A stretch of 64,000 nt of DNA, taken from the NCBI GenBank assembly GCA_964016885.1, contig OZ024742.1, positions 108,252,001 through 108,316,000 on the forward strand. The letters are read 5' to 3'. Shown here piece by piece: positions 46,865-48,655 of this stretch (its first letter is position 1; every line of letters starts with the position of its first letter). Both the position numbers and the translations under genes were made by a program. This DNA is from Eledone cirrhosa. Its lineage: Eukaryota. Under the pieces are notes generated by a model that ran no database searches, was not told where the DNA came from, and saw only the letters and a program-made list of their open reading frames with translations.

Positions 46865-47360
46865 ATATAAGTATGTATGCGTACATACATATATGTATAA
46901 AGACGTACAGTAGTATGTATATATATATATATATATACATACATGCACACATATATATATGTACGTATGGATTCACCGAACATTTATAAAAAATGCTCGG
47001 TGTGTTTGTAAACAAACATCCCGAATTAAGCCGTACAGTGTCTAGCAACCATCGTTGCTCATTTGTTCAACACTGACAAAGGAACGCTGTACTAGTTTCA
47101 AGCTTATTAGCTATCGTCTGCAACGTATACCTTCCTGCCAGATGGTTGAACGTCTGAAAGTATATACTTTCCTTATGCATATCAACGGCTGAGCAGCCTA
47201 ATTTGCATATGGAGTGAGTTAATCGGCCGGGGTACCGAACACGATAAACGGAAAAAATGAAAGGAAATTTCATTTCTCACTCTTAGTACGGCTGTTACTT
47301 AAATATAAGTATGTATACGTACATACATATATGTATACAGACGTACAGTAGTATGTATAT
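46865..47360 (-). mobile_element. Retrozyme-like ~440-nt unit, about 1.1 copies; hammerhead 47085-47125 (CAGACGA)
   Basis: Terminal redundancy 46869/47307; inverted relative of 48145-48655. Confidence 0.75.
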
Positions 47361-47379
47361 ATATATATATATGAAAGAC

Positions 47380-47586
47380 GATCGACTTTCGTCAAATCGG
47401 ACCGAGGGAACAATGTTTCCGTTGGTCTTTCCAATTGCTAATACTATCTATCGGTCGCAACTCCAGGTAGAAGGAGCAACGTGAAATAAAGTGTCTTGCT
47501 CAAGGACATTACGCATCGCCTGGTCCAGGAATCGAACTCACAACCTTACGATTGCGAATCCAATTCTCTAACCACTCAGCCACACG
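47380..47586 (-). mobile_element. tRNA-derived SINE, family C
   Basis: Reverse complement: A-box tggctgagtgg, B-box gttcgattc, tgtccttgagcaagacacttt. Confidence 0.8.
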
Positions 47587-48048
47587 ATATATATATATAT
47601 ATATATATATATATATATATATATATACATATACATATATATATATATATATACATATACATATATATATATATATATATACATACATATATATATATAT
47701 ATATATATATATATATATATATATATATATATATATATATACATACATATATATATATACATACATATATATATATATATATATATATATATATATATAT
47801 ATATATATATATATATATATATATACATACATATATATATATATATATATATATATATATATACATACATATATATATATATATATATATATATATATAT
47901 ATATATATATACATACATATATATATATATATATATATATATATATATATATATATATATACATATACATATATATATATATATATATATATATATATAT
48001 ATATACATATACATATATATATATATATATATATATATATATATATAT
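47587..48048. repeat. (TA)n microsatellite, ~460 bp
   Basis: TA tract with CA interruptions. Confidence 0.95.
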
Positions 48049-48144
48049 ACGTATGGATTCACCGAACATTTATTACAATGCTCGGTGTGTTTGTAAATAA
48101 ACATCCCGAATTAAGCCGCACAGTGTCTAGCAACCATCTGGCCA

Positions 48145-48655
48145 TATTTAAGTAACAGCCGTACTAAGAGTGAGAAATGAATTTTCGTTTCATTTTTTCC
48201 GTTTATCGTTTTCGCTACCCCGGCCGATTAACTCACTCCATATGCAAATTAGGCTGCTCAGCCGTTGATATGCATAAGGAAAGTATATACTTTCAGACGT
48301 TCAACCATCTGGCAGGAAGGTATACGTTGCTGACGATAACTAATAAGCTTGAAACTAGTACAGCGTTCCTTTGTCAGTGTTGAACAAATGAGCAACGATG
48401 GTTGCTAGACACTGTACGGCTTAATTCGGGATGTCTGTTTATAAACACACTGAGCATTGTAATAAATGTTCGGTGAATCCATACGTACATATATATATGT
48501 GTGCATGTATGTATATATATATATATATATATATATATATATATATATACTACCGTACGTCTGTATACATATATGTATGTACGTATACATACTTATATTT
48601 AAGTAACAGCCGTACTAAGAGTGAGAAATGAAATTTCCTTTCATTTTTTCCGTTT
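48145..48655 (+). mobile_element. Retrozyme-like ~450-nt unit, about 1.1 copies; hammerhead 48325-48365
   Basis: Terminal redundancy 48150/48601; cgttg-CTGACGA-taac taataa gctt-GAAA-CTAG-TA-cagcg. Confidence 0.8.

Follow-up and report, generated by a model that had tools for sequence, protein, structure and literature searches.

A hammerhead-bearing, non-coding repeat of probable octopod origin and the Penelope-type layout of one of its loci

Non-LTR retrozymes are type I hammerhead repeats of 150–450 bp that form circular RNAs in coral, mussel and axolotl, and it has been proposed that they are mobilized by Penelope-like elements (PLEs) (PMC7229834). The published retrozyme model derives cDNAs longer than a single unit from such circles (PMC7761336), and both dispersed monomers and homology with the pLTRs of PLEs have been reported (10.64898/2026.07.22.740005). 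Partial tandems are the form described for PLE insertions; many have an inverted, 5′-truncated copy next to the 5′ end and a tail of 30–40 bp, in many cases at one end only, and several clades use (TA)n targets (PMC8557442). A PLE protein was found in vitro to nick AT-rich DNA on both strands and to begin reverse transcribing at two sites inside the RNA, which define the optional tail, with hammerhead cleavage being unnecessary (PMC11167929). For the canonical metazoan hammerhead architecture a dimer is usually needed for cleavage (PMC4209133). The excerpt of PMC5680766 adds nothing on molluscs. No cephalopod retrozyme was described in the full-text literature searched (a search that took in neither subscription journals nor the PMC7229834 supplement, and neither Repbase nor Dfam), and the family reported here may already be catalogued in Repbase or Dfam.

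The window analysed here is a 64-kb stretch of DNA. That its host is a cephalopod, as had been proposed in an earlier sequence-only reading, is supported by the reverse transcriptase (RT) of a LINE in the window, whose closest named relative is from Argonauta hians (64% identity; one match reaches 70% and most others at most 45%). On this one transposon protein an octopod host is likely. At 46865–48657 the window contains pieces of a repeat unit that is a non-coding, hammerhead-bearing, non-autonomous retroelement of the non-LTR retrozyme type. Like the metazoan retrozymes of Cervera and de la Pena (2020; PMC7229834), whose units measure 350–390 nt in Mytilus galloprovincialis, it is non-coding, has less than 50% G+C (35%), carries a type I hammerhead with a weak palindromic helix III, has a highly self-paired fold and occurs in high copy number alongside PLEs, a GIY-YIG element being present in the window itself. 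Helix II has a U-U mismatch at its base, as does that of the axolotl HHR_Amex2 (PMC7229834). It differs from these retrozymes in its size, which at 438 and 451 nt is at the upper limit of the 150–450 nt expected, in its internal TA-rich hairpin, and in that the locus is without two same-strand hammerheads and has both motifs damaged. Circles are known in those systems, while the present unit is known as sequence.

The repeats of Li, Clavereau and Pollet (2026; 10.64898/2026.07.22.740005) are mainly vertebrate and span 51–972 bp, a range that includes our unit. They share with it the dispersed, monomer-like hammerhead copies and a proposed dependence on PLEs, but no pLTR homology was found for the present unit in a comparison with the one near-complete PLE of the window, although its insertion anatomy is PLE-like. 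These authors call a copy active when two units with complete hammerheads follow each other, and by this definition the locus is not active. With EN+ PLEs (Penelope/Poseidon, Neptune and Nematis; PMC8557442, PMC4209133 and PMC11167929) the locus has in common a partial tandem with an inverted, 5′-truncated copy, a one-ended extension read as a tail, an AT-rich or (TA)n target, and a type I hammerhead in the repeat. It is unlike them in having no RT/GIY-YIG open reading frame (ORF), a canonical rather than minimal hammerhead and a tail of 59 nt in place of 30–40 nt.

Layout of the locus and its hammerheads

The locus comprises three pieces of the unit, here called copy A, copy B and piece C, within 1.8 kb, and no further copy was found in the 64-kb window (Table 1). 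Position 1 of the unit is set at 47306 in copy A and at 48144 in copy B. Piece C, the SINE-like piece and the defects of the two hammerheads were absent from the first description of the locus, which listed A and B alone as two copies of the same non-coding unit with different periods and redundancies and one hammerhead each, and on all of these points that description holds. Exact anchors give periods of 438 for copy A and 451 for copy B with its redundancy (48144–48657), and over the 345 nt of their complex bodies the two copies show 11 differences and one gap, a match beyond chance (blastn, E 1e-163). The difference in unit length was rightly ascribed in the main to the TA tract, the run of which is 14 nt longer in B. 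Copy A is redundant for a segment X of ~54 nt which precedes position 1, with two mismatches in 54 between its two occurrences; copy B begins with position 1 and carries positions 1–63 (segment Y) a second time, with two mismatches in 63. Both copies are longer than one unit and unbroken across the GUA site. At its 3′ end copy A extends 4 nt into the next unit and has no tail, and the second Y of copy B is read as a Penelope-type tail. All six frames of the unit body are closed or short, and no ORF lies in or adjoins the unit at the locus, including the RT and GIY-YIG ORF that would mark an autonomous EN+ PLE. The non-TA body is strongly folded in the sense strand (z = −6.3, with none of 100 shuffles as good) and less so in the antisense strand (z = −3.75).

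Table 1. Coordinates of the features described in the text (positions in the window).
Feature	Position	Strand	Remarks
Penelope-like element	14697–19450	+	Frameshifted; RT fragments, CX4CXXC linker, GIY-YIG; inserted in (TA)n
Left flank	46800–46868		Compound TA/TG microsatellite, probable insertion target; 6 ATG, 0 CAT (plus strand)
Copy A	46865–47372	−	TA run, then first occurrence of X (47307–47356), then full 438-nt unit (46869–47306)
Type I hammerhead, copy A	47084–47126	−	Core U4 is A at 47119; predicted cleavage after 47090
SINE-like piece	47373–47586	−	~215 nt; within TA tract between C and A
TA tract	47587–48049	−	463 nt; continues piece C
Piece C	48050–48139	−	Inverted, 5′-truncated; unit positions 254–345; head-to-head with B
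Inversion junction	48131–48143	+	48131–48142 match unit positions 159–170 on the other strand
Copy B	48144–48594	+	Full 451-nt unit; internal TA-rich hairpin; no ORF in six body frames
Type I hammerhead, copy B	48324–48366	+	Intact core; helix II mismatch at 48339; GUA at 48358–48360
Terminal redundancy of copy B (second Y)	48595–48657	+	63 nt; 59 nt past the end point of copy A
Right flank	48656–48712		Compound TA/TG microsatellite with polarity of left flank; 6 ATG, 0 CAT (plus strand)
L1/Tx1-like LINE	54858–60263 and 60722–64000	+	Two tandem, nearly identical copies

The hammerhead occupies positions 181–223 of the unit, with predicted cleavage after position 217 (48360 in copy B). Its parts are a 6-bp helix I, the core, a helix II whose 4 bp stand on a U-U pair and carry a 4-nt loop, and a helix III of 2 bp with a palindromic loop. 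This corresponds to the canonical type I arrangement (helix I of ~6 bp, helix II of ~4 bp and a short palindromic helix III) and not to type III. Metazoan non-LTR retrozymes differ from the LTR retrozymes of plants in having neither a primer-binding site nor a polypurine tract. Each of the two motifs carries a single defect, in the U4 position in A and in helix II in B, and decay has thereby disabled or weakened both at the sequence level. Rfam gave no matches in the whole window at the gathering threshold, and a scan of 44000–52000 with E values up to 5 returned 105 rows, made up of TA-hairpin microRNA and similar chance rows, with no hammerhead among them. The hammerhead call therefore rests on inspection of the motif and its helices and on the variation found in the family. 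When a dimer was folded, the active dimeric hammerhead did not emerge by itself, and a 22-nt hammerhead pattern had no matches in metagenome contigs or in viral contigs.

Piece C is 94.6% identical to copy A over 92 nt. At its junction with copy B the match to the other strand is 12 of 12 nt (E 2.6, weak on its own), consisting of an 8-nt microhomology and 4 further nt, and this microhomology suggests a template switch. The inner TA tract is interrupted by 20 CAT and no ATG on the plus strand, the same polarity as that of the TA segment within the unit when read on the minus strand. The outer flanks thus have one polarity and the inner tract the opposite one, as expected from a single insertion splitting one microsatellite. 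A 13-nt match between the flanks was not significant as a target duplication, with 13–20% of random cuts reaching it. With the SINE-like piece left out, the minus strand reads as C, TA, X and A in a continuous partial tandem of ~1.6 units; the exception to this continuity is a stretch of 24 nt that normally separates the pure TA run from position 345 and is unrecognizable in the tract of C.

The SINE-like piece has a tRNA-like head by eye, in which ARAGORN found no tRNA. Relatives that are 72–81% alike occur in the window at 38950–39133, 28809–28907 and 35735–35816. By eye, the piece ends in an apparent half hammerhead (the start of a core and a helix II hairpin), and the relative at 35741 (within 35700–35816, minus strand) shows a hammerhead-like core in the same place; the family may be a SINE with a tRNA head and a 3′ end of Penelope type.

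The repeat family in sequencing reads

Part of the unit body is present in 20 of the 24 listed sequencing runs, from 13 studies, none of them recorded as RNA. Four runs (X1, X4, X20 and X22) were aligned to 46890–47420 and used here, to the exclusion of X2, X3, X5–X10 and X11–X19, the last of which have small shares. Run X1 is possibly the source of the window itself, X22 carries the same species label and comes from another study, and X4 is from another organism and study. Matches amounted to 8,325 contigs in X1, 66,078 reads in X22 and 44 contigs in X4; X20, guessed to be RNA (share 0.05), gave 0 contigs on this interval and carries no weight on expression. As had been supposed, the unit is therefore part of a multi-copy family, present also in a second organism, and is not a unique local duplication. 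Most of the X22 reads (42,257 of 66,078) are only 90–95% like copy A, which indicates a large and diverse family. The comparison omitted the TA-rich intervals 46890–46975 and 47305–47420, leaving the ends of the family and its wrap-around junction not directly visible, and none of the listed read pieces spans the locus.

Variation in the reads bears on the hammerhead. An intact core U4 is found in 10379 of 10619 and in 7551 of 7583 reads of X22 and over >99.8% of X1 depth, and the change seen in copy A is not common to the family reads. Among the differences shown (40 of 124), those within the hammerhead concern U4, loop 2, the position 7 that is free to vary and the two partners of one helix I pair. 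In X22 the two sides of this pair change at 45% and 44% on one strand and at 93% and 94% on the other; these matching frequencies suggest selection on the fold, although the covariation is less tidy in X1 (52% vs. 32%).

The proposal that the unit carries its own TA tract is borne out in part. At 46992, 6,830 reads are loose-ended with a median loose length of 49, reaching the CATG at 46942, and reads over positions 1–41 must start ~58 nt upstream, which fits a start at this CATG followed by X and nearly no pure TA run. Such an arrangement would measure 57–59 nt, as against 77 nt in copy A and 91 nt in copy B; the estimate comes from read geometry, and reads with long TA runs may have been filtered. 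The family unit seems to include the TA-rich hairpin, but by the same geometry the pure TA run at this locus appears much longer than usual. The geometry also fits a common end-to-start junction in the family, the letters of which lie outside the read comparison. The locus itself has partial tandems with one hammerhead per strand and no two on the same strand.

The X22 library appears to be of the double-digest RAD type with AATT and CATG cutters. Read ends at 47024, 47200, 47203, 47269 and 47265–47266 coincide with the three AATT sites of the stretch and are read as restriction ends and not element ends. A fixed element end at unit position 41–42, for which 24,730 X22 reads with mixed loose ends at 47265–47266 had made a candidate, was rejected as an artefact of this kind. 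Fifteen joints are listed in the family, 13 of them strand switches at varied positions, of which 12 lie away from restriction sites; three of the 15 were discarded as restriction ends or ligation chimeras. The strand-switch joints come mostly from RAD reads with 1–5 start points, with only one in a contig, and the library contains ligation chimeras, such that they are taken as no more than supporting evidence for a head-to-head layout. Within the body, essentially no X1 contig passes into unlike sequence (share 0). One X1 contig on 47206–47244 has a joint at 47244, which is position 63, where copy B ends, an isolated hint that ends may recur here.

Origin of the insertion

We lean towards the view that 46865–48657 is one decayed compound insertion of PLE type in a TA microsatellite, and not two independent circle-derived copies. 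At position 124 both A and B have G, where another base is found in 2876 of 2903 and 756 of 784 X22 reads, in 99.97% of X1 depth and in all X4 depth, making this G as rare as the private changes of copy A. The divergences are also alike, with 11/345 (3.2%) between A and B, 2/54 (3.7%) between the two occurrences of X, 2/63 (3.2%) between those of Y, 4/89 between C and A, and 5/89 between C and B. The shared rare base, the similar divergences (3–6%) and the lack of any other copy in 64 kb together favour a single event from one source. Several points speak against this. The rare shared base is one site, and we estimate the chance of such sharing over ~345 sites at ~0.03–0.15; the SINE-like piece must be either a later or a co-copied insert; and a tail of 59 nt is longer than the 30–40 nt of PLEs.

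That the template exceeded one unit, as had been proposed, is upheld by the length of both copies, although copies of greater than unit length allow no choice between a circle and a linear multimer. A finer indication comes from individual positions. At position 44 the base in the first Y of copy B is that of the family majority (94% of X1 depth), while the Y of copy A and the second Y of copy B share the minority base, and near position 314 B and C share a base unlike the loose-end consensus of the family reads. Both are fitted better, on one or two sites, by a template of two slightly different units, with B and C copied from the first and A from the second, than by one monomeric circle. Position 44 thus favours a heterogeneous multimer.

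The sequence-only reading had taken A and B as independent events and their unequal redundancies as the footprint of a circle. In that form, A and B (with C) would be two insertions, each rolled round a monomeric circle from an arbitrary start point, on either side of a pre-existing SINE in TA microsatellites, and we consider this unlikely. More-than-unit cDNA from circles is what the published model predicts (PMC7761336 and PMC7229834), in agreement with two copies that are over-long and uninterrupted at the GUA site, but a linear dimer explains these lengths equally well. A circular form of the unit also gives a good fold (z about −9 when the TA tract is included), TA microhomology could place the ends within the TA tract in separate events, and a SINE that was already there would make a later insertion unnecessary. 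Against this stand the rare base common to A and B, their equal divergences and close spacing, and the Penelope-type layout formed with C, which tell against independence; the bases at position 44, moreover, would need reversion or conversion if they came from one monomeric circle. The different redundancies can be explained without a circle, as internal priming of the PLE type suffices for them, and two copies cannot define a phase distribution. An origin at the DNA level, in which one insertion was locally duplicated or inverted, either by replication template switching in TA tracts or by excision of a unit-length DNA circle between direct repeats and its re-integration nearby, would leave the permutation silent on RNA. 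Long TA tracts and hairpins are prone to recombination, and such routes would suit the proximity of A and B, their rare common base and the identity of the Y of copy A with the second Y of copy B (63/63). We nevertheless regard this origin as improbable, given the several steps needed for the permutation and polarity of A, the equal age of all duplicated parts, and the recurrence of the head-to-head layout in the PLE of the window and, as strand-switch joints, in the family reads.

Also to be weighed is whether the unit is simply the pLTR of an autonomous PLE, with heavily 5′-truncated copies and no separate retrozyme. Opposite-strand hammerhead pairs 100–700 bp apart have been reported for truncated PLEs (PMC4209133), and in Xenopus there is homology between retrozymes and pLTRs (bioRxiv 10.64898/2026.07.22.740005). 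The unit, however, adjoins its own sequence at either end and has all six frames closed and no ORF remnant, its 6-bp helix I and 4-bp helix II are canonical, as in retrozymes, in contrast to the long helix II of the minimal motifs of PLEs, and the share of X1 contigs running from the body into unlike sequence is nil. This origin is accordingly judged very improbable.

A single compound insertion, the reading that we prefer, could have arisen as follows. A tandem source would be transcribed into RNA of more than one unit, after which a PLE protein would nick the TA-rich microsatellite and prime reverse transcription inside the RNA, as shown for another PLE (PMC11167929). Both target strands would then be extended, with the B arm beginning near position 63 and so having a tail and the A arm beginning near position 4 without one, and the 5′-truncated arms would be joined head-to-head at 48139/48144, where this layout is seen. 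The minus arm would consist of C, TA, X and A, ~1.6 units, its TA tract being interrupted by the SINE-like piece and by TA expansion. Subsequently the copies would have decayed by 1.5–3% each, the damage visible in both hammerheads being part of this. In intact members of the family the hammerhead, probably dimeric through its palindromic helix III, would cut multimers into monomers of 430–450 nt, and there is about an even chance that such monomers circularize, as in coral, mussel and axolotl. The wider picture of a very high-copy and still expressed octopod retrozyme, which makes a 430–450-nt circular RNA with a TA hairpin of its own and owes its insertion to a PLE protein that targets TA, is put forward tentatively and is, on balance, somewhat doubtful.

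Were it true, genomic copies alone could show that PLEs mobilize animal retrozymes, and whether the template was a circle or a linear multimer, as insertions would keep the Penelope signature (head-to-head arms and a one-sided tail) and thereby record the template that was copied. Mobilization of animal retrozymes by PLEs has so far been deduced from co-occurrence and pLTR homology (PMC7229834 and 10.64898/2026.07.22.740005), and a high-copy family with a Penelope layout would offer a direct genomic test. Clustered ends whose redundancies are unequal would indicate that multimers were primed internally, and scattered ends with identical redundancies that a circle was copied. The retrozyme class and the circle model are both already published, and what is new here, within the literature searched, is the probable extension of retrozymes to cephalopods; the circle proposal being the textbook retrozyme model, its surprise is modest.

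Other elements in the window

The PLE at 14.7–19.45 kb has a GIY-YIG domain (PF01541, E 1.8e-6), and its relatives carry both RT and GIY-YIG. Within its ORF at 18202–18921 a CX4CXXC motif precedes the GIY-YIG domain, a linker that has been tied to Neptune and Nematis elements and to microsatellite targeting (PMC8557442). Both terminal repeats of the element contain a hammerhead-like motif, one at 14995 and the other at 19289. At 14912 an inverted copy stands head-to-head and ends in (TA)n, by which the element serves as a layout control for 46865–48657. The unit showed no similarity to this PLE (blastn with word size 7, and tblastx), which was the one PLE covered by the partner search. By eye, ORF fragments at 22670–22990 and 53886–54359 (plus strand) resemble the GIY-YIG endonuclease ends of other PLEs; neither had a Pfam match at E 0.001.

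To the left of copy A lies a second hammerhead repeat family, represented by a near-perfect palindrome of 125 nt (46602–46726) with one hammerhead-like core per arm, at 46661 (minus strand) and 46666 (plus strand). Its relatives at 4961–5162 and 10444–10502 are likewise palindromic. Motifs resembling the minimal hammerhead, with a long helix II and an AT-only helix III, are present at 5455, 26565, 45295, 49003, 14527 and 44043 and belong to at least two families. Motifs with a helix II hairpin number six in the window, compared with a mean of 1 and a maximum of 3 in 50 shuffles. Two sequences that are 80% alike, 45181–45342 and 48888–49042, bracket 46865–48657 at a distance of 3.7 kb from each other. 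Lastly, the L1/Tx1-like LINE has a zinc-knuckle ORF1 and an endonuclease-RT ORF2 with stops, the RT of which matches PF00078.
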